A stretch of 59,631 bases of DNA. Origin: a virus (Duplodnaviria > Heunggongvirae > Uroviricota > Caudoviricetes). Where the stretch lies: IMG/VR virus record IMGVR_UViG_3300042991_000725, positions 1 to 59,631 of that record; one strand, written 5' to 3'. Below are positions 35,439 through 56,172 of the stretch, piece by piece; position 1 is the first letter of the stretch, and every line of letters begins with the position of its first letter. Below the pieces are notes generated by a model. The model made no database searches, had not been told where the DNA came from, and worked only from the letters and a program-made list of their open reading frames with translations. The translations under genes were made by a program, and so were the position numbers.

Positions 35439-37274
35439 ATGTCTTATATAAGTCTTCATAATCACAGCCATTACAGCATACTTGATAGCTTGATAAGAGT
35501 TGATCAACTATTGGGCATTGCAGATGAGTATAAGATGGAAGCCGTAGCAATTACAGACCACGGCAATTGTTTTGGGCATAATGAGTTTTGGAAATTGCAT
35601 ACTGATAAAAAGGGTAAATTCAAGAACGTCAAACCGATCTTTGGTTGCGAAATTTATGTTGAAGATGGTATAGACAAGTTGACGCATATGATCCTGTTAG
35701 CCAAAAACAACAATGGTCTGCAAAATCTTTACTCTATAGTCTCTGATTCAAATAGAAATTTCAAGAAAAATCCACGTACTACCATACCTATATTAAATCA
35801 GTATGGCAAAGATCTTATATGCATGTCTGCCTGCATTGGCGGCTATACAGCTCGTCCGTTTATTAAAAATGACGAAGCGGAAGGTATGCGCAGGATAGAC
35901 GAGCTATTGAATATCTTTAAGGATGATTTCTATCTGGAAGTGCAGGACGAAAACACAAAGTATTACAATAGCAACGATTACAGCGAAGATAGCATTAGGA
36001 GCTACATGAAGGAATCTACTGCTGATTTAGATAGGCAAGAGATAGAGATGCCCGAACAAGTGCTTATAAAAAAGATATATAGAGAAATTGGGAAGCGGAA
36101 GTCCATTCCTGTTGTTTGTTCGTCTGACCCCCATTATGTCAAGCCTGGGGATGCGTTGTGCCATGACATCCTCTTATGTATCCGTTCACATTCTGTCATT
36201 ACTGATGATAAGAGGACGAAAGAGAATCCAAAAGGCAGACGATTCGCTTTCCCGTGCCATAATTTTTATTTCAAAAACGAAAAATATATGTTGTCAAGAT
36301 TCACGAAAGAAGAGGTTGAGAACACGCACAGAATTGCCAAAATGTGCAATGCAACCATAGAAAAGCGCAAAACATATCCTAAATATAAATTTGTTCCAAG
36401 TGGAGAAACCTCTGTATCATACACAAAGTCTCTGCTCAACTCCGGATGGAAAAGACTGAAGATCGATTTGAAGTCTAATAAAGACGAATATAAGAAAAGA
36501 TTGCATCATGAGTTCGAAGTTTTGGCCAAGTATGACCTGTTGGACTATTTCCTTGTTCTTAAAGACATTGTCAATTTTTGTGAATCTAAGGATATCGATT
36601 CTGGACCGGGGCGCGGATCGGCCGCAGGGTCGTTGCTTTTGTACATTCTCGGCATCACTAAGGTCGATCCAATCAAACACGAATTAATGTTTGGCAGATT
36701 CTTTAATGAAGCCAGAATGAGCAAAGACGCCGGTTCTGGTCTCGATGTGGACATGGACTTTCAGCGCGACAGGCGGGACGAAGTTTTTGCTTATATTAAA
36801 GAAAGATTTGGACAAGATTGCGTCGCTCCAATTATGACAATAGGCACACTCGACTCCAAGTCTGCCGTTAAAGCTGTTGGCCGAGCCTTGGGCCTCAATT
36901 ATGATGATGTCAACAGAATAACCAAAGAATGTTTCCCAAATCATTACGAGGATTTGGCAGACGCAATAAAACAAGAAAATAAATTGCGCCAAGAATACAA
37001 GAAAAACAAAAGACTTTTTGAGCTTGCGCGTATGGTGGAGGGTAACGCCAGCAGTCGTGGCACTCATGCTTGCGGGATTATTATTAACGATAAGCCGCTT
37101 GGTCGTGAATTCCCTCTATGTTGGGATCCAGAAAAGCAGCATCTAATTTCTGGTATTGTCGGCAAAGACATTGACGGACTGGGGTTTACAAAGATTGATA
37201 TTTTAGGATTGTCTTGTCTAAGCATTATCAAAGACACCATCAAAATGATTAAGGATGATTGCCGTGGCAACTAA
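35439..37274 (+). CDS. dnaE: DNA polymerase III alpha subunit, N-terminal half (PHP + palm/catalytic core)
   Basis: HNHSHYS, TDHGN, GCEIY, GRGSAAGS, catalytic DVDMDF, HACG, KIDILGL; stops 22 aa after KIDILGL. Confidence 0.96.
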   Translation: MSYISLHNHSHYSILDSLIRVDQLLGIADEYKMEAVAITDHGNCFGHNEFWKLHTDKKGKFKNVKPIFGCEIYVEDGIDKLTHMILLAKNNNGLQNLYSIVSDSNRNFKKNPRTTIPILNQYGKDLICMSACIGGYTARPFIKNDEAEGMRRIDELLNIFKDDFYLEVQDENTKYYNSNDYSEDSIRSYMKESTADLDRQEIEMPEQVLIKKIYREIGKRKSIPVVCSSDPHYVKPGDALCHDILLCIRSHSVITDDKRTKENPKGRRFAFPCHNFYFKNEKYMLSRFTKEEVENTHRIAKMCNATIEKRKTYPKYKFVPSGETSVSYTKSLLNSGWKRLKIDLKSNKDEYKKRLHHEFEVLAKYDLLDYFLVLKDIVNFCESKDIDSGPGRGSAAGSLLLYILGITKVDPIKHELMFGRFFNEARMSKDAGSGLDVDMDFQRDRRDEVFAYIKERFGQDCVAPIMTIGTLDSKSAVKAVGRALGLNYDDVNRITKECFPNHYEDLADAIKQENKLRQEYKKNKRLFELARMVEGNASSRGTHACGIIINDKPLGREFPLCWDPEKQHLISGIVGKDIDGLGFTKIDILGLSCLSIIKDTIKMIKDDCRGN

Positions 37275-42610: not shown

Positions 42611-44116
42611 ATGAAGGATTTTTCTGACGAAGTCATTATTAACGACCCGGAAGTGTATAAGTTGATTAGCCGTGGCGAAACTGGCCTTGTTTTCCAGTTG
42701 AATTCACCCATTGGCAAGAAGTACAGCAAATTGGTCAAGCCACAGAACATTGAAGAACTATCAATGCTTGTTGCGTTGACTCGCCCTAACGTACTGAATG
42801 CCGGATTAGATAAAGATTTTATATCGGTGCGTAATGGCGAACGTCAACCAATATATCCAGATCCAAGATTAGAAAAGATATTAGGTCAAACATATGGCAT
42901 TTCTTTGTATCAAGAACAAATTATAACATTGGGCAAAGAGGTCGCAGGATTCAGTGAAGTAGAGGCTGATTGGTTAAGACATGCTATGGGCAAAAAAGAT
43001 AGAGATGTTATGAAAAAACTACGAAGAAAGTTTTTGGAGGGTGGTATCAAAAACAAATATTCGCTTATAAGCCTTATGACTATTTGGCGCAAATACATTA
43101 AAGCTGCATCTTCGTATGTTTTCAATAAAAGTCACGCTACAGTATACGCTTACAACTCTGCGCGTACTGCATACTTCTGTGCCCATTATCCACTAGAATT
43201 TATTTGCTCCAATCTTATTCATTCTGACGGTGATTTAGAAGAAATAAAAAAGATAATCAATGTTGCCGCATCGTTTGGCATTTCAATTAAGCTGCCGAAC
43301 ATAAAGAAATCCGGCATAGACTTTACAATTGATAAAACCGCCAATTCTATTTTGTTTGGATTGAAGCACATTAAGGGTATAGGCAAATCGGTTCTTCCCA
43401 AAATAAAGAATATTGTTAACTACGTGGGGATCGACAAGCTTTTAGTGTATGAGGCGTTTCATTCTACAATAAATAAGACTGTTATGAATGCGCTGATTTT
43501 TAGTGGGGCTTTCGATTGTTTAGACAGCAACAGGTGCCGCAATTCCAACGCATACAATTTGCTCCTTGAATTCAGTGAGCGCGAAGGAAATATTATGTTA
43601 GACATGTGGCATGACAGCTCTTCTGTACGGAGTTTGGTTAATGGATTTGTTGAGCATTGCAAGATGACGCATGACGTTAACAAAAACAGGATGGTCAAAA
43701 TTATAGAGTTACAGAATAGATTAAATGCTTTTTATGAGCTTAAGGAAAATTTCAACGAGATCATACTTAAAGAACGCGGATGTCTTGGTATTTCCTTAAC
43801 TGGCTGTGAAACAGATACTTATGATATAGACTGCAATTTGTGCCTTGATTTGAAAACAAGGGCAAATCGTGATACTATAAGGCTTTGTGTTCTTATTGAT
43901 GATGTCCGCTCTATCAAAACAAAGAAGGGCGATATGATGGCTTTTATAAGGGGGTTTGATTCATCTGGAAGCGTTGATTTCGTTTTTTTCCCACAACTAT
44001 GGGGGGAGTATAAGGATAGATTCGTAAAGGGGTCAATATTATACATTACTGGTACTGTAGAAAAGTCTCGTGGCGAAAATGTTATAGCCAATAAGATTAG
44101 GATAGTTAAAAAATAA
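42611..44116 (+). CDS. dnaE: DNA polymerase III alpha subunit, C-terminal half (fingers, HhH, OB fold)
   Basis: NDPEVY.LI..GET..VFQL.S, ALTRP, YQEQI, AD.LR.AMGKK, YVFNKSHA, YPLEF, GLKHIKGIG, KTKKGDMMAF. Confidence 0.96.
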   Translation: MKDFSDEVIINDPEVYKLISRGETGLVFQLNSPIGKKYSKLVKPQNIEELSMLVALTRPNVLNAGLDKDFISVRNGERQPIYPDPRLEKILGQTYGISLYQEQIITLGKEVAGFSEVEADWLRHAMGKKDRDVMKKLRRKFLEGGIKNKYSLISLMTIWRKYIKAASSYVFNKSHATVYAYNSARTAYFCAHYPLEFICSNLIHSDGDLEEIKKIINVAASFGISIKLPNIKKSGIDFTIDKTANSILFGLKHIKGIGKSVLPKIKNIVNYVGIDKLLVYEAFHSTINKTVMNALIFSGAFDCLDSNRCRNSNAYNLLLEFSEREGNIMLDMWHDSSSVRSLVNGFVEHCKMTHDVNKNRMVKIIELQNRLNAFYELKENFNEIILKERGCLGISLTGCETDTYDIDCNLCLDLKTRANRDTIRLCVLIDDVRSIKTKKGDMMAFIRGFDSSGSVDFVFFPQLWGEYKDRFVKGSILYITGTVEKSRGENVIANKIRIVKK

Positions 44117-44728: not shown

Positions 44729-46391
44729 AAAAATAAAGCTGTTGTTTAGCAACGAGGGGAGCTGTCTTGAAACCGGCTTTTCTAAAATTGGCCGGGAAAT
44801 GATGTATATTCTTCATGATATGGGTTGTTATGATATTGTTGAACTTGCAAGTTATGTCGGTGAAGGTGATAAGCGTATTGAAAAATTCCCTTGGCGTATT
44901 TATCCAGTAGTGCCCCCCAGAGGGACATCTGCCTACAAACAGTACGAAAGGCAGTTTAAAGTTGCACAATTTGGCGCATTGCGTTTTAATAGCGTTATGG
45001 TCATTGAAAAAGTGGATTTTTGCGTGGACATTCGTGATTTTTGGATGTTGAACCATATTTTCCAGAGTCCGTATCGTAATAATTTCCGATTTGTTATTCG
45101 TCCTCCAGTAGATGGTGAGCCGCAAGATGAAGAATGGATACATTGTTTTAAGACTGCGGATGTTGTTTTTTCGCATAGTCGGTGGGGTAAGAAAATTCTT
45201 GAATCAGAAGGGGTTAAGGTAGATGGCATTCTCTATGGGTGTATCAATTCTGATAATTTTAAACCCTTGAATAAAATAGAGATGCGTAAGAAATACAAGC
45301 TTCAGCCAGATCTTAAGATTATTCTTAGCGTTATGCGCAATCAAGCCAGAAAACAGTTTCCAGAGTTGCTCCAAGCATATGCGTTGTTTAAGAAGAAGTA
45401 TCCAGAAACTTTTGAGCACTCTGTACTTTTGCTCCACACTTCATATCCGGATACAATGGGATGGGATCTGCCCCAACTTTTGCGAAGATATGGTCTTGTT
45501 TCCGATGTTATTTTTACCAATTATTGTTTGGAGTGTGGCAAGCCTTCAGTAACATTTCTGCAAAAGGATTATCACAGGAATAATAAAAATATTTGTTTCC
45601 ATTGTGATAAATACAGCGCAGTCTTCCCAAGTACAAATAGGGGAGTAAGCGAACAGGAATTGAACGAGATATATAATCTGGCAGATCTTTATGTTCAATT
45701 GGCTGGTGGAGAGGGGTCTGGCCTTCCAGCTATAGAAGCTAAAGCCACAGGCCTTCCCGTTATTTGTTGTCCATACAGTGCTATGGAAGATCACGTGCTC
45801 GATCCGGGCGGTATCGGGTTGAAGATTAAAGGCTACTATGTTGACTGGCCACAAATGATCAATAGGGTCTTGCCAGACATTGAAGACTTGGCAGCCAAAT
45901 TTGATTGGTTCTTTAAGTTGTCCAAAGAAGAGCGCATTGCAGTAGGCAAGCCGGGTATTGATTTTGTAAAGAACAACTATAATTACAAGTTGATCACTCA
46001 ACGATTCCACGAAGTGCTCCAGAACACTCCATTGCTTGATAGATCACAGACTTGGGATGCACCAATGCTTGATTTATCGGCATATAAGAGTGTGAATGAA
46101 AAAGACGAACGGCCAGATATAGACAATTATTCATTTGTCGAGTACTTATACAAGCGTATATTTAATCGTCAGCCCGAAAAGTATGGAATGATGAAAGAGT
46201 ATTTGGACGCACTCAATACCGGCAAAATGAAACGGTCTCAAATAGCACTTCAGTTAAAGCATGTTGCTGAACTTATGTGTAAATTGGAAATGCTTAGGGT
46301 GGGTGCTATTAAGAGTCCATCGAATATTAATAAGGACTTAGACGATATCGCTGAAATAGCCCAAAAACACAAGGTTATTAAAATTTTATAG
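44709..46391 (+). CDS. GT-B (family 4-like) glycosyltransferase with Zn-finger insert and DUF4214-like C-terminus
   Basis: TGFSKIG, MRNQ.RKQ, LNEIYN.ADLYV....GEGSGLP.IEA.A.G.PVI; CLEC...CFHC; FVEYLYKRIFNRQPE. Confidence 0.9.
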   Translation: MVVGKNRKIKLLFSNEGSCLETGFSKIGREMMYILHDMGCYDIVELASYVGEGDKRIEKFPWRIYPVVPPRGTSAYKQYERQFKVAQFGALRFNSVMVIEKVDFCVDIRDFWMLNHIFQSPYRNNFRFVIRPPVDGEPQDEEWIHCFKTADVVFSHSRWGKKILESEGVKVDGILYGCINSDNFKPLNKIEMRKKYKLQPDLKIILSVMRNQARKQFPELLQAYALFKKKYPETFEHSVLLLHTSYPDTMGWDLPQLLRRYGLVSDVIFTNYCLECGKPSVTFLQKDYHRNNKNICFHCDKYSAVFPSTNRGVSEQELNEIYNLADLYVQLAGGEGSGLPAIEAKATGLPVICCPYSAMEDHVLDPGGIGLKIKGYYVDWPQMINRVLPDIEDLAAKFDWFFKLSKEERIAVGKPGIDFVKNNYNYKLITQRFHEVLQNTPLLDRSQTWDAPMLDLSAYKSVNEKDERPDIDNYSFVEYLYKRIFNRQPEKYGMMKEYLDALNTGKMKRSQIALQLKHVAELMCKLEMLRVGAIKSPSNINKDLDDIAEIAQKHKVIKIL

Positions 46392-49365: not shown

Positions 49366-49578
49366 ATGACTAATCCAAATTGCGACAGGGTCGAAAATGC
49401 TATGCTTATAGCGGTTTGTATATCTATTGCCGTATCTATTTTTCTAGCTATAGCAGTGACTAGATTTTTTGTTAATGAAGCATGGCGTAATGAATTAGTT
49501 GGAAAGAATGTTGCAGAATACAATCACACTACTGGAGAATTTAAATTTATTATAGAAAAGAAGGGAGCTGGAAAATGA
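49366..49578 (+). CDS. Small membrane protein
   Basis: Single TM helix; ends KKGAGK at conserved junction. Confidence 0.65.
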   Translation: MTNPNCDRVENAMLIAVCISIAVSIFLAIAVTRFFVNEAWRNELVGKNVAEYNHTTGEFKFIIEKKGAGK

Positions 49579-49919
49579 GCGGGATACCCGACATGCTAGC
49601 GGAAGACATGCTAAAAGAGATTGACCGGCAACGTGCAGAAATCTCCCGTCTCAAGGAGGAGTCGGAGAACAAGGACGATTTGCGGCTGTGGTCGGAGGAA
49701 GCAATCCTTGAGTTTCTGGAACGTAGAGCGAAAGAGTGCGACAGGAGAGATTTATGCAGTTGCACTCCAACTGAACTATCTTATTGCGCCACGAGAAAAG
49801 CCGTGGCAGAACTCAAGACCAAGTTATTGGAACATGTCCGGCTTAAGGGGGAGTTGGAGAAGGTGAAGGCAGAGTTTTCCGCATATCGTGAGATGGTGGA
49901 GGAAGAAATCGAACCATAA
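49575..49919 (+). CDS. Accessory coiled-coil protein
   Basis: Starts at junction motif; EISRLKEE and VRLKGELEK. Confidence 0.65.
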   Translation: MSGIPDMLAEDMLKEIDRQRAEISRLKEESENKDDLRLWSEEAILEFLERRAKECDRRDLCSCTPTELSYCATRKAVAELKTKLLEHVRLKGELEKVKAEFSAYREMVEEEIEP

Positions 49920-49931
49920 GGAGGCCGGAAA

Positions 49932-50216
49932 ATGAACGAATGTCAATGTGGACCCGCGTGTCATGAAAATGGAAAGTGTCCTATCGCAGAGGCTCAGGAT
50001 GAAGTCTCCCGCCTCAAGGCAGAGTTGGAATATGAGATCGAGCGAAATGTTAATAATGTTTGGATGGCCGATATGGAGATTGCTCGTCTCACGACGGAGT
50101 TGGAAAAGGCGATTGGATACCTCCGTGAAGGCAAGAGAAAATTTGCACCAACCACAACAAATAGCGAGGTAGATTGTTTTCTCGTAAAATACGAAAAGAA
50201 GGGAGTTGGAAAATGA
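49932..50216 (+). CDS. Accessory coiled-coil protein
   Basis: Junction motifs at both ends; EVSRLKAELE, EIARLTTELEK. Confidence 0.65.
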   Translation: MNECQCGPACHENGKCPIAEAQDEVSRLKAELEYEIERNVNNVWMADMEIARLTTELEKAIGYLREGKRKFAPTTTNSEVDCFLVKYEKKGVGK

Positions 50217-50278
50217 ACTTTACTGAAATTGTTCCGCACTTACAGGAGCGCGGGTTCGCTATGTGAAGGCATTACTCA

Positions 50279-50719
50279 ATGAAATTAAACGCTAACAAAG
50301 AGTTACACTGGCTTTGGAAATCAAATAAAGACCTTTCCATGCCAATTGTAGTTGAAAAACATGCCCTTAATGTGAGCGGATATTATCGCCATCCGCAACC
50401 AGAAGAACGTATTTATGATGACCTAGACTTTGTTGTTCCCAAAAACACCGGGGTTATTGTTGTTGATTTCGATGATTTAGACAATGCTAAAAGCGCTTTG
50501 GCCCATGAATTCAGACATCACTGGCAGATGTACAACCATATAAATCTTTGCTCGACTGGATGGGCCTATGTTTATAATCTTACAAACAACTATGAAGAAT
50601 CAATAAGGAGGTTCTTTTATAGCTGCGACTTCGAGATGGATGCTTACAAGTACACATGCGAGGTCGCGTCAAGCGAACTGACCGACTATTGGGCAGGTTT
50701 GTTAGAGATGAGAATATAG
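50279..50719 (+). CDS. HExxH (zincin-like) protein
   Basis: LAHEFRHHWQ...EMDAY. Confidence 0.7.
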   Translation: MKLNANKELHWLWKSNKDLSMPIVVEKHALNVSGYYRHPQPEERIYDDLDFVVPKNTGVIVVDFDDLDNAKSALAHEFRHHWQMYNHINLCSTGWAYVYNLTNNYEESIRRFFYSCDFEMDAYKYTCEVASSELTDYWAGLLEMRI

Positions 50720-51045
50720 AAAGGTGTTGTTATGTTGCAGGAACAAAACAAATTTATGATTTTATGGTCGAACAGAAACAAATAATTCTTTTGAGGCTTA
50801 TGGAAATGCAATGCCGACTAGGACCATCAAATTGTCGTTCTTGTGAATTTAGAAGTGAATGCGATATTTATATTGAAATAAAAAATTGTCACAAAATTCT
50901 TAATAAATGGAACAAAAGTTCAGATAGTTGGGATTTATATAGTCGCGTTTCTCTTCTTGTGAGTTGTCATCTGAAACTGTCAGAAACGGCTGGAAATTTG
51001 ATAGCTGCGAATATAAAAAAACAAAAGGAGGATACCCGTGGCTAA
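50656..51045 (+). CDS. Hypothetical protein (true start probably further downstream)
   Basis: ORF with CRSC..C motif. Confidence 0.4.
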   Translation: MRGRVKRTDRLLGRFVRDENIERCCYVAGTKQIYDFMVEQKQIILLRLMEMQCRLGPSNCRSCEFRSECDIYIEIKNCHKILNKWNKSSDSWDLYSRVSLLVSCHLKLSETAGNLIAANIKKQKEDTRG

Positions 51046-51292
51046 AGGTGGAGCAGACTATGAGAAATTCAAGAATGGCGAAAAATTGTCTATGCGTCAA
51101 GCTATCCGCGCACATTGTTTCCAGTGTATGGGATTTTATGGCGACGGAGTCTTTGATTGCAAGAATGTCAAGAGTTGCCCACTTTATCCATTCATGCCAT
51201 ATAACGAGAGCAGGGTAAGGAAGGTTAGGGTGATGAGTGATGAAGCTAAGGCGCAGTTTGTAGAGCGCGTACAAGCGGCTAGGAGGGAATAG
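51038..51292 (+). CDS. Small Cys-rich phage protein
   Basis: AIRAHCFQC.G...C....CPLYPF. Confidence 0.65.
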   Translation: MAKGGADYEKFKNGEKLSMRQAIRAHCFQCMGFYGDGVFDCKNVKSCPLYPFMPYNESRVRKVRVMSDEAKAQFVERVQAARRE

Positions 51293-51296
51293 TGTC

Positions 51297-51782
51297 ATGG
51301 ACGTATACAAGAGGTATGCCAACAGAGACAGGGACTTCCCTAAGCGTCGTGGGCACTGTAGGTACTGCGGCAAGTATGCAAGGCTTGTGTATTGTTCGCC
51401 CAAGTGTAAGATGGAGGTTGACATTAGGTGTGGGTGGTATGCGGATGACTACATATTTAAGAGGGATAAAGGAGTGTGTCATAGATGCGGGTTGGACACG
51501 CTTGCTGTGAGTGCAGAGTTACACAGATTAAATAGAGTGCAAAAAACGCCTTCTTGGCTATCCACCTATACAACATGGAGCGATTTTATTGTCAGTGGAG
51601 GATTCCCAAGGCTATGGCATGAGAAGCTATGGAGGGGCCATCATATCAAACCGATTTATTTAGGTGGCGGATGTTGCGGGATTGAAAACTACGAAACGTT
51701 GTGTTGGCTATGTCATAACAAGGAGCATGAGAGCAGAGAAAATCAGAAAGGGATGGGTGTGGCTAAAGGAGGACTAAAATGA
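51297..51782 (+). CDS. HNH endonuclease
   Basis: RDKGVC..CG, HHIKP...GGG....N..TLC..CH..EH. Confidence 0.88.
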   Translation: MDVYKRYANRDRDFPKRRGHCRYCGKYARLVYCSPKCKMEVDIRCGWYADDYIFKRDKGVCHRCGLDTLAVSAELHRLNRVQKTPSWLSTYTTWSDFIVSGGFPRLWHEKLWRGHHIKPIYLGGGCCGIENYETLCWLCHNKEHESRENQKGMGVAKGGLK

Positions 51783-52282
51783 TTTATGGAAATGATTTAG
51801 TTAAGTCGGTTGTAATTTACCTATCTGGTGCCATCGAGTCTGTAAGTGATGGTGGAACGGAATGGAGGCGTATTCTAAGGCCCATGTTAGAAGAAAAGGG
51901 GTATATTGTAATTGACCCAACAGACAAAGTCGTCCATGGTCTTATTCATGAAGATAAAAACAAGCTTTGCCAACTAAAGGTTTCGGATAAATGGGAAGAG
52001 TTCCATTCTATTATGAGAGAGATTGTTAAATGGGATTTGAGAGGGGTTGACAAGAGCGATATTGTTTTTGTTTATTTGCCTTCACCTACTACTCATATTA
52101 TAGGCACATGGCACGAGTGTGTTCTTGGATCAATTGAACGCAAGAAGATTTATCTTGTTCTTGGTAGTGGCAAAGTTGCAGACTTGAATAGCTGGCTACT
52201 TTACATCGTAGGCTACAAAAACATCTATAGTAATTTCGAAGATGCCATACATGCAATAGGCGTTGACTTCCCACAAGCCTAA
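51779..52282 (+). CDS. Nucleoside 2-deoxyribosyltransferase-like protein
   Basis: IYLSGAI, WR, IDP, DLR.VDKSD, GT..E. Confidence 0.82.
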   Translation: MIYGNDLVKSVVIYLSGAIESVSDGGTEWRRILRPMLEEKGYIVIDPTDKVVHGLIHEDKNKLCQLKVSDKWEEFHSIMREIVKWDLRGVDKSDIVFVYLPSPTTHIIGTWHECVLGSIERKKIYLVLGSGKVADLNSWLLYIVGYKNIYSNFEDAIHAIGVDFPQA

Positions 52283-52332
52283 AGCCTTGCCAAAACGGTG
52301 TATATATTATTATATCTCAAAGGAGGGGGTTT

Positions 52333-52818
52333 ATGAGCACTATACTCGTATCTTTCGTTACTTTTATCTTAATTATTGGCGTATATGTATGTTATGTAGA
52401 ATCACATGGAAATTCTGATAACAGTGTAATAAATCCAGAAAAAGAAGCTAAACAAATAAAAAAATGGTTTGAGCTGATTTACGGTCAATCATTTTTCTCT
52501 TCTTATGGAGATTATTACGGTTCTCCTAAAAGCGGTCACAAAATAATGGGCCAATTCAAGGGCAATACAAGCATCATTTATCTGCAGAACGCTTATCGCA
52601 ATGGATCTGCAATCATTGTGGCTAGAATAAAGGGTGTGTATAACAAAGATTACAAAGAAATGGTTAGTTTGGGCCATGGTATTATAAACGACATTGCGTA
52701 CTTTGACGATGCCTTACCGATAACCACTGTCAAGAGCACTCCTACAAGGGCTGCAATTCAATTAACTATAAACAATATGCCGTTTAGAATCGAAGTTAAC
52801 GTGGGCAAGCGACACTAG
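52333..52818 (+). CDS. Signal-anchored hypothetical protein
   Basis: SD AGGAGG; N-terminal hydrophobic helix. Confidence 0.7.
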   Translation: MSTILVSFVTFILIIGVYVCYVESHGNSDNSVINPEKEAKQIKKWFELIYGQSFFSSYGDYYGSPKSGHKIMGQFKGNTSIIYLQNAYRNGSAIIVARIKGVYNKDYKEMVSLGHGIINDIAYFDDALPITTVKSTPTRAAIQLTINNMPFRIEVNVGKRH

Positions 52819-53341
52819 GGCCAAGATTCATTCTGCCAAGGGAATCTTGGTATCTTTTTAACATTATTTTGGCATATGCGTCAGCTTGCCATTCTACATT
52901 TCTACCTGTTATCTGCCCTGTTTTCCTGAAATAATGAAACAATTCGTGCATCACTATAAACACAATCCCTTCTGCCATAGTATTTAATGTCAAATTGTCG
53001 GTCGTTTCAAGCCAACACTTGCCGCCAATCACGTGCTCCTTCGAGTCTCTAAACAGCTTGATTATGGCGTTTCGTTCGTCTTCCTTGTAATATATAGGGG
53101 CATTTTTAATCGCAAATTCCATTGGATAAGGCCCTGGAACCTGACAAGAGATTCGGTAGGATTTTCGTTGTCTGGTCGGATAGTGGCATCGGCCATAGAT
53201 CCCACCTAATTTGCCCCTGCCTAAACTGATATTTATATATTCTATTTTGTCCAAATCTTCACCCATAACCTCTGTCATTATCCAAGAGGTAGCAATAATA
53301 GACTCTTCATCTTTTATGCGCTTGTCGATTTTCCATTTCAT
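52796..53341 (-). CDS. SprT-like HExxH metalloprotein
   Basis: YGRC...; VMHELFHY...E..AD.YA. Confidence 0.7.
   Translation of the reverse strand: MKWKIDKRIKDEESIIATSWIMTEVMGEDLDKIEYINISLGRGKLGGIYGRCHYPTRQRKSYRISCQVPGPYPMEFAIKNAPIYYKEDERNAIIKLFRDSKEHVIGGKCWLETTDNLTLNTMAEGIVFIVMHELFHYFRKTGQITGRNVEWQADAYAKIMLKRYQDSLGRMNLGPSVACPR
52821..52860 (+). terminator. Candidate intrinsic terminator ending the + strand block
   Basis: CCAAGATTC/GAATCTTGG 9-bp stem, 12-nt loop, then TATCTTTTTA, 2 nt after the last + strand stop. Confidence 0.5.
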
Positions 53342-53429
53342 TTTTTTTGCCTTCTTGTAATTGGGACAAGGAATACAATAGCTCCTTTAAATACATAGTC
53401 CATCAACTATATCGAGACAACTTAACCTC

Positions 53430-53720
53430 TTATACCACAACACCTTGCACATACTCGGCCAACCATTCGTCGTACTTCGCCAGTGCACTCGTCCCGAGGG
53501 GTTCCCTCATAGGGGCCCGGATGAGAGCCTTGTATTCGTTCAGACGTGCGGTATTCCACAGGATGAATCCAAGCATACATACTCCGAGGTAGTCCTTCTT
53601 ATCCCTCTCCATCATCTCGTCCGGAGTACATCCGTGGGCCTTGGCATAAAGAATATACCTTGGGTTGTCGTATCCCGGCATGGCCTTCCTCCTATCCAAT
53701 AGTTTTTGTTGCGAAGTCAA
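53430..53720 (-). CDS. Hypothetical protein
   Basis: ORF; higher GC than flanks. Confidence 0.55.
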   Translation of the reverse strand: MTSQQKLLDRRKAMPGYDNPRYILYAKAHGCTPDEMMERDKKDYLGVCMLGFILWNTARLNEYKALIRAPMREPLGTSALAKYDEWLAEYVQGVVV

Positions 53721-53800
53721 TCCAATCCCATAATTGACCTCTTTCTAAATTGTACCAAAAACTAACAATAGCTTTTGGCACGGGTTAGAGAACTCTCGCT

Positions 53801-53980
53801 TCACTCTGGTCCCTTGGGAGTCAAAACAAAATCCGGGACCACTCCATGCTCGTCGTAATAATTCAACAGTTTCAAAAACAGCGATTCGCGTTCTTTCCCC
53901 GCTTGAGGGCACGCCAGAATAGCCGCATCCAATTTCATATCGATTGCATGCCGGAGGCTGTCAGGAACAATTGCTATCAT
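53801..53980 (-). CDS. Small accessory protein
   Basis: ATG inside junction motif. Confidence 0.55.
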   Translation of the reverse strand: MIAIVPDSLRHAIDMKLDAAILACPQAGKERESLFLKLLNYYDEHGVVPDFVLTPKGPE

Positions 53981-54483
53981 TTTCCACCCTCCTTCCACCG
54001 GCCGACCAGTCTCCGGTCACACCCCCATAAAATTTCAATTTTCCCATCTCTTTCTAAAAGTCGCATTGCGTCGGCATAGGACGAGCGCCCGTTGGAATCC
54101 AATTTGTCCCCGCAGAGGCACGCTTTATTTATTGTTTTGATCAATGCCTCCTGATACTTTTCCAATTCCAATTTGAGCCGGGCAATCTCGTTTTCCAAAT
54201 CAGAAACACACCTGCAATTACTTACAGATTCACATATTTCGATCATTTTTTTTGTTTCCTTTTCGATTTTTCGTTTTGGGTGACAAGCGGAGTCGCACCC
54301 GCGCCAGGCCAAAACCTCCTTGGTTGCGATACCAATGGCCAAGATAAAATTACAAATCAACTTGGCGAGAATAAAGTCTGGAATGTTACATTCGCTTTCA
54401 ATGCCGTTCCGGTTTATTAGTTCCATCAGCCCATTTTCAAACCTCGCCAGTTTGGGAACTATCGAAATCTCTTTTTCTCTCAT
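53977..54483 (-). CDS. Accessory protein with EIARLKLELEK module
   Basis: Junction motifs at both ends. Confidence 0.65.
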   Translation of the reverse strand: MREKEISIVPKLARFENGLMELINRNGIESECNIPDFILAKLICNFILAIGIATKEVLAWRGCDSACHPKRKIEKETKKMIEICESVSNCRCVSDLENEIARLKLELEKYQEALIKTINKACLCGDKLDSNGRSSYADAMRLLERDGKIEILWGCDRRLVGRWKEGGK

Positions 54484-54632
54484 TTCCCGGCCTCCTTATT
54501 TTCCAATTCTTCTTCCAGGTCAGCAACGCGACTTTGTAAAACGCACAATGGGCACTCTAGATATATTCCGTCCTGTCGTTCAAGACGAATTACAATGCAA
54601 TCCACGTATTCACATGTCAGCATGTCACTCAT
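54480..54632 (-). CDS. Small accessory protein (50 aa, ends KEAGK)
   Basis: Manual translation MSDMLTCEYVDC...ELENKEAGK; junction motifs at both ends. Confidence 0.6.
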   Translation of the reverse strand: MSDMLTCEYVDCIVIRLERQDGIYLECPLCVLQSRVADLEEELENKEAGK

Positions 54633-54781
54633 TTTCCGGTCTCCTTGTCAATAATTTTTTGGACAAATTCACAACATTTTAATTCCTTCACTGTCCACTT
54701 TGTCCTGTCAGTTTGATTAAGAGCCAGTTCAAGAAGCTGAATAAACTCTTTAGTAAGATTATTAGGTATTGTAATTTTCAT
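54629..54781 (-). CDS. Small accessory protein (50 aa, ends KETGK)
   Basis: Manual translation MKITIPNNL...IIDKETGK. Confidence 0.55.
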   Translation of the reverse strand: MKITIPNNLTKEFIQLLELALNQTDRTKWTVKELKCCEFVQKIIDKETGK

Positions 54782-55002
54782 ACAGAACCCTCCTTTTTGC
54801 ATTTTTGAAGAATCTGATAACCATCACAGTCAGGATCATTAGCATTGTTAGTTTCAGACCATGCATCCCAAACATCTCCGAGCAGCCTTCTTAATCGTAC
54901 AATATCTTTCTCAAGTTTATTCCTTTCACCTTTTACACGGAACAACTCTCCTTCTAAATGAATTATCTCTTGATTCTGACTTATAATAGACGGTTTTTTC
55001 AT
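54778..55002 (-). CDS. Small coiled-coil accessory protein
   Basis: ORF with SD GGAGG. Confidence 0.55.
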   Translation of the reverse strand: MKKPSIISQNQEIIHLEGELFRVKGERNKLEKDIVRLRRLLGDVWDAWSETNNANDPDCDGYQILQKCKKEGSV

Positions 55003-55041
55003 TTATTTATCCTCCTACCAAGCTGAAAGACATCATGTTTT

Positions 55042-55320
55042 TCATCTGTAGTTATTTTTTCTCCTCTCCCATTCATCACATCTACCATAAGGTTCTACGC
55101 TCCGACAATAGTGCCAATCAAGCCAAGCTTGTGTGCCTTTCCCTTTCTTATGAGACCTCACACCTTTCCACCATTCTTCGTTAAGAGCGCAAACCGATTT
55201 CATAGTAAATCCCACAATACAATATCCTTCCCAAGTCTCAGGATTCCATGGTTCAAAACACTTAGTGCAATTATGACAACCATCCTGACAACAATAAGAT
55301 TTGGGTAAAATTTCATTCAT
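55042..55320 (-). CDS. Cys/Trp-rich accessory protein
   Basis: CCQDGCHNCTKC...YGRCDEW. Confidence 0.55.
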   Translation of the reverse strand: MNEILPKSYCCQDGCHNCTKCFEPWNPETWEGYCIVGFTMKSVCALNEEWWKGVRSHKKGKGTQAWLDWHYCRSVEPYGRCDEWERRKNNYR

Positions 55321-55438
55321 TATATCACCCACGAGAAACATCCCCATGAATTCCCCGCGGCTGACTCATACTGCGACCACCAGAACGGAAACACCCATAT
55401 GGTGCATCCGAGAAGATGAAACTTGATATTCCAATTTC

Positions 55439-55639
55439 TCATTTCCCGACCTCCTTATTAAAGAGTTGCATTTTAAGATAATTCACTTCTGTTTTTCACC
55501 TACGTTTCCAGTAACGACTTTCTCCTTTCTCCTCCTCCAACTCCTCTTTGAGTCCCTCAATCTCCAACTTAAGTTCGCAAGTGTGGCACATGCGTGCAAG
55601 ATTTCCGTGCTGACACTCATTGCTCTTCTTCTCGCTCAT
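55439..55639 (-). pseudogene. Accessory cassette gene with in-frame TGA at 55498-55496
   Basis: MSEKKSNECQHG...RYWKRR*KTEVNYLKMQLFNKEVGK*; frame continues past the TGA to the typical KExGK junction. Confidence 0.45.
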
Positions 55640-56172
55640 TTCCCGCCCCCTTTATGATTAATTTCAATATTGATTTGTTGTAAAATATCATCAATTATTT
55701 TTTTCGTTTTTCTGAATCCGATCTTGTGTTTTTTCGCTATATATTCCAATGCGCGTTTATGATGAAATCTATCCACGAAAATATTGTGATAAGACTCTGG
55801 GACTGAACTAAGCACTGTTTTGATAGACATACTGGTTTCTGTTTCTGTCATTATCACCAACGGAGTCCTGTAGTCAATTTTTACGGTTCTGTCATTTTGT
55901 AGCTCTATATTTAAATTGTTGTTACTGTTTTCTTTATACGCCTCTTGCAACATTTTATTCTTTGCGGCTTTGTACAAATAACCCGCAAATGATTTATTGG
56001 CTTTTAACTTTGATGTATTGTATTTGCTGACAACTTCCAATACACCAACACTAACGAGGTCATCTATAATCTGATATCTGACTCCAAAACTTACCGCGCA
56101 TCCTATTATCCCCGGCTTCAGTTTTTCTAAAATAGATAACAAGTCGTTATCAATTGTTTGTGTCGGACACAT
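55636..56172 (-). CDS. Sigma-70 (ECF-like) RNA polymerase sigma factor
   Basis: Region 2-like DDLVSVG...KY....SFAGYLY...KN.ML; region 4-like HTH LEYIAKKHKIG. Confidence 0.75.
   Translation of the reverse strand: MCPTQTIDNDLLSILEKLKPGIIGCAVSFGVRYQIIDDLVSVGVLEVVSKYNTSKLKANKSFAGYLYKAAKNKMLQEAYKENSNNNLNIELQNDRTVKIDYRTPLVIMTETETSMSIKTVLSSVPESYHNIFVDRFHHKRALEYIAKKHKIGFRKTKKIIDDILQQINIEINHKGGGK

Follow-up and report, generated by a model that had tools for sequence, protein, structure and literature searches.

The closest described system to the element reported here is the promoter-early stem-loop (PeSL) of the T4-type phages RB49 and phi1 (Arbiol et al. 2010, PMC2839356), which holds a sigma-70-like early promoter (-35/-10, with AT-rich upstream sequence) and a terminator stem-loop, and for which exchange is backed by genome comparison and by the detection of mini-circles. 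A second precedent comes from the boundary “linker” sequences of lambdoid phages and the Susskind-Botstein modular model (summarised in PMC3233612). Here we describe a repeated stop/Shine-Dalgarno (SD)/start element, hereafter the connector, in the Caudoviricetes record IMGVR_UViG_3300042991_000725, a complete 154,404-bp IMG/VR phage genome with direct terminal repeats, whose first 59.6 kb (59,631 nucleotides) form the stretch of DNA analysed here and called the window. All evidence on the connector comes from within this one genome, and on that evidence we judge the chances about even that it is a lineage-specific portable gene connector and also a short-homology recombination joint. Though PeSL-like in the way it works, it is not a PeSL, and it has the geometry of a synthetic bicistronic design in which, as Mutalik et al. 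reportedly described in 2013, a leader open reading frame (ORF) ends in an SD and an overlapping stop/start.

The pattern AARGRRNNNGGRAAATGA (AAGGAG-NNN-GGRAAATGA) matches the window exactly at eight places, which span 49,561 to 55,653 (49561, 49918, and 50199 on the plus strand; 53977, 54480, 54629, 55439, and 55636 on the minus strand), against an expected count of 0.00 in 100 dinucleotide shuffles. A weight-matrix scan of the complete genome returned 13 sites at 23-32 bits, with the next-best match at 17 bits and noise at or below 13 bits, equal to the shuffled-genome maximum; the matrix was built from 12 copies, which scored at least 21 bits in leave-one-out, while the thirteenth (105433) was not in the matrix. 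The additional copies outside the window (genome 65390, 74372, 75012, 75278, and 105433) are all on the minus strand. Together the 13 copies fall in three neighbourhoods on both strands, each oriented as its gene, and every one lies at a gene start with an ATGA overlap. Their consensus is AAGGAGGCCGGAAAATGA, often preceded by TAA and often trailed by GYGA, and its information is confined to positions -14 to +4, weakening to +6 or +10 in subsets, although likeness between some pairs extends to about 24-39 nucleotides (nt). An initial annotation of this DNA had proposed eight such junctions with a conserved length of 19 bp and, in most copies, an upstream gene ending in K-[E/G]-x-G-K and a next ATG overlapping the TGA. 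All eight sites and all eight overlaps are present (its minus-strand coordinates were one base low), the conserved junction stands with a measured core of 18 nt, and six of the seven listed tails end real genes, the exception being KEVGK, which ends a 10-codon mini-ORF. The genome-wide scan further sets the 13 sites apart as a discrete family and not the general SD consensus of the genome. The junctions of the window are as follows, with protein lengths in amino acids (aa) and tails written up to the stop codon.

49561..49578, plus strand: connector AAGGGAGCTGGAAAATGA, ends a 70-aa membrane-like gene (KKGAGK) and starts the 114-aa gene.
49918..49935, plus strand: connector AAGGAGGCCGGAAAATGA, with a TAA overlapping its 5' end that stops the upstream gene in another frame; starts the 94-aa gene.
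50199..50216, plus strand: connector AAGGGAGTTGGAAAATGA, ends the 94-aa gene (KKGVGK) and opens a 17-codon stub.
53977..53994, minus strand: connector AAGGAGGGTGGAAAATGA, ends the 168-aa gene (KEGGK) and starts a 59-aa gene.
54243..54261, minus strand: decayed connector AAGGAAACAAAAAAAATGA, one A beyond the standard spacing, in an A8 run.
54480..54497, minus strand: connector AAGGAGGCCGGGAAATGA, ends a 50-aa gene (KEAGK) and starts the 168-aa ORF.
54629..54646, minus strand: connector AAGGAGACCGGAAAATGA, ends a 50/57-aa gene (KETGK) and starts a 50-aa Cys plus coiled-coil gene.
54778..54795, minus strand: variant junction AAGGAGGGTTCTGTATGA, with the same geometry (KEGSV) and another spacer.
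55439..55456, minus strand: connector AAGGAGGTCGGGAAATGA, without a real upstream gene; starts a 40-aa ORF (55320-55442).
55636..55653, minus strand: connector AAAGGGGGCGGGAAATGA, ends a sigma-70-region-2-like 178-aa gene (HKGGGK) and starts a 47-aa gene.

Each connector combines a strong SD, a fixed 7-nt spacer, a downstream start codon, and a TGA overlapping that ATG (ATGA in 13 of 13 copies). This is the geometry of a translationally coupled operon junction, with the SD within the end of the upstream ORF. The TGA closes the upstream frame and the TAA, where present, closes a second one. On the upstream side, eight real genes end at the TGA and one stops at the TAA just before it, the remaining four copies being preceded by mini-ORFs alone or by an out-of-frame upstream gene. 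The recurrent K-E-x-G-K tail arises because the connector sequence AAG GAG RNY GGR AAA TGA dictates it, and the motif is conserved even where no upstream gene reads through it; the constraint therefore acts on nucleotides. Folding of positions -50 to +30 revealed no hairpin common to the 13 sites and a mean SD accessibility like that of control genes, and the connector matched no Rfam family; it therefore acts as linear sequence. Scanned for promoters, the region yielded no more matches than shuffles and none at the junctions. Separately, a restriction-site role for CCGG or GGCC was ruled out, both counts being as expected.

Beyond these 13 copies the sequence is scarce. About 215 other gene starts, among about 228 genes from a crude gene call, carry GGAG-like sites with all kinds of spacers, and about 30 other ATGA/GTGA-overlap junctions with an internal SD have sequences unrelated to the connector. 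Outside this phage, 2.9 million IMG/VR viral contigs yielded 20 exact copies of the 18-mer, each a singleton, and five distantly related or unrelated viral records with one exact copy each showed no connector enrichment. A slightly looser pattern gave only singletons among the matches listed (the first 120 stretches of a 596-Gb prokaryote collection), compared to seven matches within 26 kb in this phage, and 880 kb of unrelated metagenome loci held one loose match. As far as these searches reach, the connector thus appears private to this phage. Relatives of the phage itself were sought in IMG/VR, metagenome contigs, 5.8 billion proteins, and INPHARED, with the clamp-loader/RuvB-like gene, Pol III alpha, the sigma-like gene, the 89-aa cassette, and the 94-aa and 168-aa proteins as queries, and none was found above 47% identity in a core protein. 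A metagenome scan yielded only distant RuvB-like loci, its pattern being too general to recover the two 45-47% relatives. One partial likeness lies within the window, where AAATTGGCCGGGAAATGA at 44782-44799 reproduces the connector's 3' twelve bases exactly, without an SD, inside a 558-aa glycosyltransferase gene and with its ATG in frame at codon 29; this could be a relic, an internal start, or chance.

Traces of rearrangement are seen at the connectors or no more than about 60 nt from them. A one-gene cassette of 273 bp (window 53977-54249, minus strand) recurs at genome 75009-75281 with 85.7% nucleotide and 79% amino-acid identity, and the homology sets in at the left connector's AAAATGA and stops exactly at the right connector's ATGA, beyond which the sequences are unrelated. 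The two copies lie 21 kb apart and are the only detectable intragenomic duplication. At the decayed connector AAGGAAACAAAAAAAATGA, the extra A joins 79 upstream codons in frame to the duplicated gene and so produces the 168-aa ORF, which is either a real fusion or a homopolymer error; an A8/T8 homopolymer (54246-54253) sits exactly at the fused junction, and one base fewer would give two separate coupled genes. On the plus strand, a 24-nt direct repeat (49555-49578 versus 50193-50216, 23 of 24 identical) with a private AAGGGAG variant of the connector brackets a GC-richer block of the 114-aa and 94-aa genes (49579-50192). The idea that every block has its own private connector pair was rejected, as it holds only for 49561/50199, with other nearest-neighbour relations being mixed.

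The flanks of the copies also appear shuffled. Likeness beyond the core is one-sided and differs pair by pair: the copies at 49932 and 54483 match over an upstream extra 39 nt (49897-49935 versus 54480-54517), those at 54483 and 65390 share a one-sided extra match of 33 nt, and ten identical downstream bases are common to 54632 and 65390 (ATGAGTGACA) and to 55639 and 74372 (ATGAGCGAGA). When position -8 (A or G) is set against the two downstream types, all four combinations are present among the copies, and such reassorted left and right flanks are what crossovers inside the core would produce. In addition, orphan gene tails without genes precede the connectors at 55442, 74372, and 75278, and the 17-codon stub follows the one at 50213. 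A 23-nt direct repeat (22 of 23), which encodes the start MDKEILEV of a small gene, brackets a 1.2-kb block at genome 74130-75306. This block (region genome 74022-75580, outside the window) holds an 89-aa gene, a 189-aa pentapeptide-repeat protein, and a 66-aa gene, and the left repeat copy opens an 18-codon mini-ORF that runs into a connector. Further, connectors on opposite strands (49561-50216 on plus versus 53977-55653 on minus) form inverted repeats of 18-20 nt that are 89-94% complementary; exchange between them would invert the convergent junction with all genes still coupled, a route by which cassettes would switch strand.

The genes joined in this way are almost all ORFans by Pfam and PHROGs. 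Annotated exceptions, within the array or next to it, comprise an HNH endonuclease, a nucleoside-deoxyribosyltransferase-like protein, and a small sigma-70-region-2 protein, to which the pentapeptide-repeat protein (genome 74443-75012) adds a further one. Searches for the function of the cassette proteins in Pfam, PHROGs, and the ESM Atlas gave only 'helical hairpin, viral hypothetical', and no homologues were found in 5.8 billion proteins, IMG/VR, or INPHARED. The initial annotation had called the genes short, unrelated, and often GC-richer. The last point holds statistically for motif-started genes, whose guanine-plus-cytosine (GC) content is 0.445 versus 0.393 for the rest (Mann-Whitney p=2e-4; 0.478 versus 0.385 at third codon positions), in a genome of 39.8% GC. 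Unrelatedness survives for only part of the set, since seven of the genes have a common Cys-cluster plus E-I-x-R-L-K-x-E-L-E coiled-coil signature and one has the 86%-identical duplicate at genome 75 kb. Several upstream genes whose last five codons come from the motif are AT-rich residents, and, given the GC-richer genes that follow it, the connector appears to be tied to the downstream gene and to move together with it.

The motif family with its positions, the compositional bias, the connector-ended duplication, and the scars are observed; we infer for the connector both an everyday and an evolutionary role. Day to day it would provide termination-reinitiation coupling, so that a promoterless small gene landing in an operon would still be translated. 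On import of small genes the connector would travel with the downstream gene, and its near-identical copies may then serve as short-homology joints, with exchange at or near them by general recombination (RecA-like and RuvB-like genes are encoded) or by annealing; cassettes would in this way have been duplicated, inserted, deleted, and fused. No tyrosine (PF00589) or serine (PF00239) recombinase was matched in the complete genome, and no IntI lies beside the array, while a RecA-like recombinase gene is encoded. Shuffling of cassettes through homologous linkers without an integrase, as originally suggested, thus agrees with the recombinase search, with the duplicate and the 24-nt repeat at connectors, and with the reassorting flanks, and is not supported by several scars that lie off the motif.

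Compared to PeSLs, the likeness is threefold. Both are short repeats between small ORFans in plastic regions of a large lytic phage, both begin at the stop of one gene and extend to the SD and start codon of the gene that follows, and both are proposed as homologous-exchange substrates for inserting, deleting, and swapping single genes without a dedicated recombinase. Unlike the PeSL, however, the connector has neither a promoter (18 nt leave no room for one) nor a hairpin, and would couple translation without carrying transcription signals; its evidence is within-genome only, against genome comparison and mini-circles for PeSLs. Lambdoid linkers are likewise short conserved gene-boundary sequences proposed to target homologous recombination, with module boundaries at gene boundaries, but they were defined by comparing phages, whereas the connector is one 18-mer repeated 13 times in one genome that doubles as a ribosome site. 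With the bicistronic design and ATGA coupling in general the geometry is identical, and the mini-ORFs MQLFNKEVGK and MDKEILEVRREHYKEAAK (each followed by a stop) resemble natural leader ORFs; coupling, though, requires no fixed spacer, and the single repeated sequence is the unusual part. As in integrons, single-gene units that lack promoters and point the same way are strung together with a repeated element at their joints, but the phage lacks an integrase, an attC-like imperfect palindrome, attI, and Pc, and some of its breakpoints fall outside the repeat. The early description of the array as an integron without attC therefore holds as an analogy only, as the junctions showed no attC-like inverted-repeat structure when it was looked for and there is no integrase or dedicated promoter.

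Since coupling does not depend on a particular spacer, the recurrence of a single spacer sequence calls for a further cause. Three were considered: recent common origin plus exchange among the copies, which we prefer and hold to be evenly balanced between true and false; inheritance among paralogues, which seems unlikely though deserving of attention; and a regulator site, which seems rather improbable. Exchange is favoured because the duplicate ends at connectors, a repeat flanks the plus-strand block, and flanks reassort, a preference tempered by the off-motif scars and by paralogy. Several points weigh against the connector as a recombination joint. Eighteen bases are short for RecA-type exchange. 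One clean duplication event is seen, and although homology ends at the boundary sequence for the 273-bp duplicate and the 24-nt repeat, four other scars (orphan tails and stub) put their breakpoints 30-60 nt from the motif and not inside it, which illegitimate recombination, together with selection that keeps the ribosome site intact, would explain equally well. The near-invariant GG at -5/-4 would be explained solely by shared ancestry or by some binding factor. Roughly half of the genes are paralogues, so that duplication with an inherited start region may explain part of the repetition. On this last point, the signature RL[KT]xE[LS]E, which mostly follows a Cys cluster, is confined to connector-started genes, and a looser pattern picks out seven of them among 231 predicted proteins. 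Weak above-shuffle similarity among p94, p89, p65, p47, and p50 reaches a z of 4.6-5.9 for several pairs, with the qualification that the signature was defined after data inspection and that coiled coils inflate such z scores. A Cys plus coiled-coil family of small proteins is thus probable, not proven.

The alternative that survives best, though we consider it more improbable than probable by a clear measure, takes the motif as the inherited start region of this diverged paralogue family, with neighbours having acquired it passively and recombination playing no role. The confinement of the signature to motif-started genes (7 of 231 proteins under the looser pattern), the similarity among the five proteins, and the existence of one recent duplicate all speak for such descent. 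Yet six of the 13 downstream genes are outside the family (the pentapeptide-repeat protein, the 59-aa, 66-aa, 40-aa, and 90-aa genes, and the stub). The copies also combine left and right flanks in differing ways, and the coding sequences have diverged past BLAST detection while the non-SD spacer stays 80-100% identical, which needs selection or recent exchange.

More doubtful is a translational operator or RNase target, in which the start region GGCCGGRAAAUGAGYGA would be bound or cleaved by a phage or host RNA-binding factor that co-regulates the 13 genes, with purifying selection keeping the copies alike. T4 RegA acts at start regions and RegB at GGAG, and RegA-type regulons are similar in site number and motif length. 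The sharp motif edges (information within -14 to +6), the overlap of all copies with the start codon, and the near invariance of G-5 and G-4, where other phage genes tolerate any spacer, would suit such a factor as well. No RegA (PF01818) or RegB (PF10715) homologue is present in the genome, however, and the search gave no candidate regulator, although an unrelated one may exist; the operator also leaves the GC bias, the connector-ended duplication, the flanking repeats, and the orphan tails unexplained.

We put similarly little weight on a stronger form of the recombination proposal, in which the connector would be a plug-and-play adaptor (two-frame stops, SD, start, and optional leader ORF) for capturing small foreign genes. 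Cassettes released as circles through connector-to-connector exchange would re-integrate at any other connector on either strand, and the slippery A-AAA-TGA would give occasional -1 read-through fusions between adjacent proteins, the 168-aa ORF being a fixed example. If true, this would amount to an integrase-free gene-capture system. Finally, chance or a generic host or phage SD consensus is refuted, for although AAGGAGG and ATGA overlaps are common in phage operons, none were expected against the eight seen in the window, 13 of about 230 starts have the motif, other coupled junctions differ, and large collections give singletons only (for prokaryotes, among the matches listed).

The array itself sits at the meeting point of two gene blocks, one on the plus strand that reaches to 52.8 kb and one on the minus strand, mostly small ORFans, that begins at 52.8 kb. 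Among the replication genes of the phage are a DnaB-like helicase, a clamp-loader/RuvB-like ATPase, the RecA-like protein, and a Pol III alpha (phrog_405) encoded in two pieces (window 35439-37274 and 42611-44116) that are 5.3 kb apart. The 178-aa protein (55636-56172) matches sigma-70 region 2 (PF04542, E=1.6e-5) and overlaps the end of the clamp-loader/RuvB-like gene, and no homologue of it was found in the 5.8-billion-protein search. The smaller genes and ORFs at the junctions are listed below.

49575..49919, plus strand: 114-aa ORFan, GC 0.50, with two RLKxE(L/S)E coiled-coil segments.
49932..50216, plus strand: 94-aa ORFan, with an N-terminal Cys cluster and two E[IV]xRL[KT]xELE segments; the homologue search returned none.
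50213..50266, plus strand: 17-codon stub, opened by the connector ATG.
50279..50719, plus strand: 146-aa HExxH protein, full length compared to its homologues, with its own weak SD.
55439..55471, minus strand: mini-ORF MQLFNKEVGK (then stop), an orphan of 10 codons.

The 114-aa ORFan ends in EEEIEP, a frame-shifted relative of the EEELENKEAGK tail at 54480-54517. The 17-codon stub, which had been noted from the first and is real, is a scar or leader mini-ORF and not the broken N-terminus of the next gene. That origin was considered for it, as stub and 146-aa gene are in frame through a single TGA, yet the homologues argue otherwise: the 232 homologues of the HExxH protein are ~135-155 aa long and align only from residue 23-30 of the read-through, at the internal ATG. 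These 232 representatives (from a 1.84-billion-protein library) form an unnamed family, and the protein is possibly a minimal metallopeptidase. HExxH motifs occur in two small proteins of the window (ALAHEFRHHW at 50279-50719 and VMHELFHYF at 52796-53341), neither of which has a Pfam or PHROG family match. On the minus strand, MQLFNKEVGK is either a leader ORF or what remains of a gene tail that came along with the connector. The 40-aa ORF behind it (55320-55442) is coupled via TAATG to a 92-aa Cys-rich gene (55042-55320), and a frameshifted gene at 55442 was ruled out, as the ORF ends in this TAATG junction with the next gene and a frameshift is unneeded.

A further repeat-bracketed block lies downstream of the plus-strand connectors, where a 15-nt direct repeat, GTGGCTAAAGG(T/A)GGA, at 51038-51052 and 51759-51773 encloses a GC-richer block (0.46; window 51038-51782) of an 84-aa gene and the HNH endonuclease (PF01844). 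The repeat holds the SD of the next gene, and deletion of the block would leave a neat stop-SD-start junction, the repeat length being near chance level. Its position suggests that the block is an inserted free-standing homing-endonuclease module.

Models of phage mosaicism are still argued between targeted exchange at boundary sequences and random illegitimate joins followed by selection (PMC3233612). Boundary sequences have few clear examples in nature, and the connector would be a minimal one, at which landing cargo would be expressed at once; around it, traces of both kinds of event are found. The small genes that it marks are compositionally foreign and probably candidates for host takeover or anti-defence, and the connector potentially provides a simple handle for finding such cargo genes.

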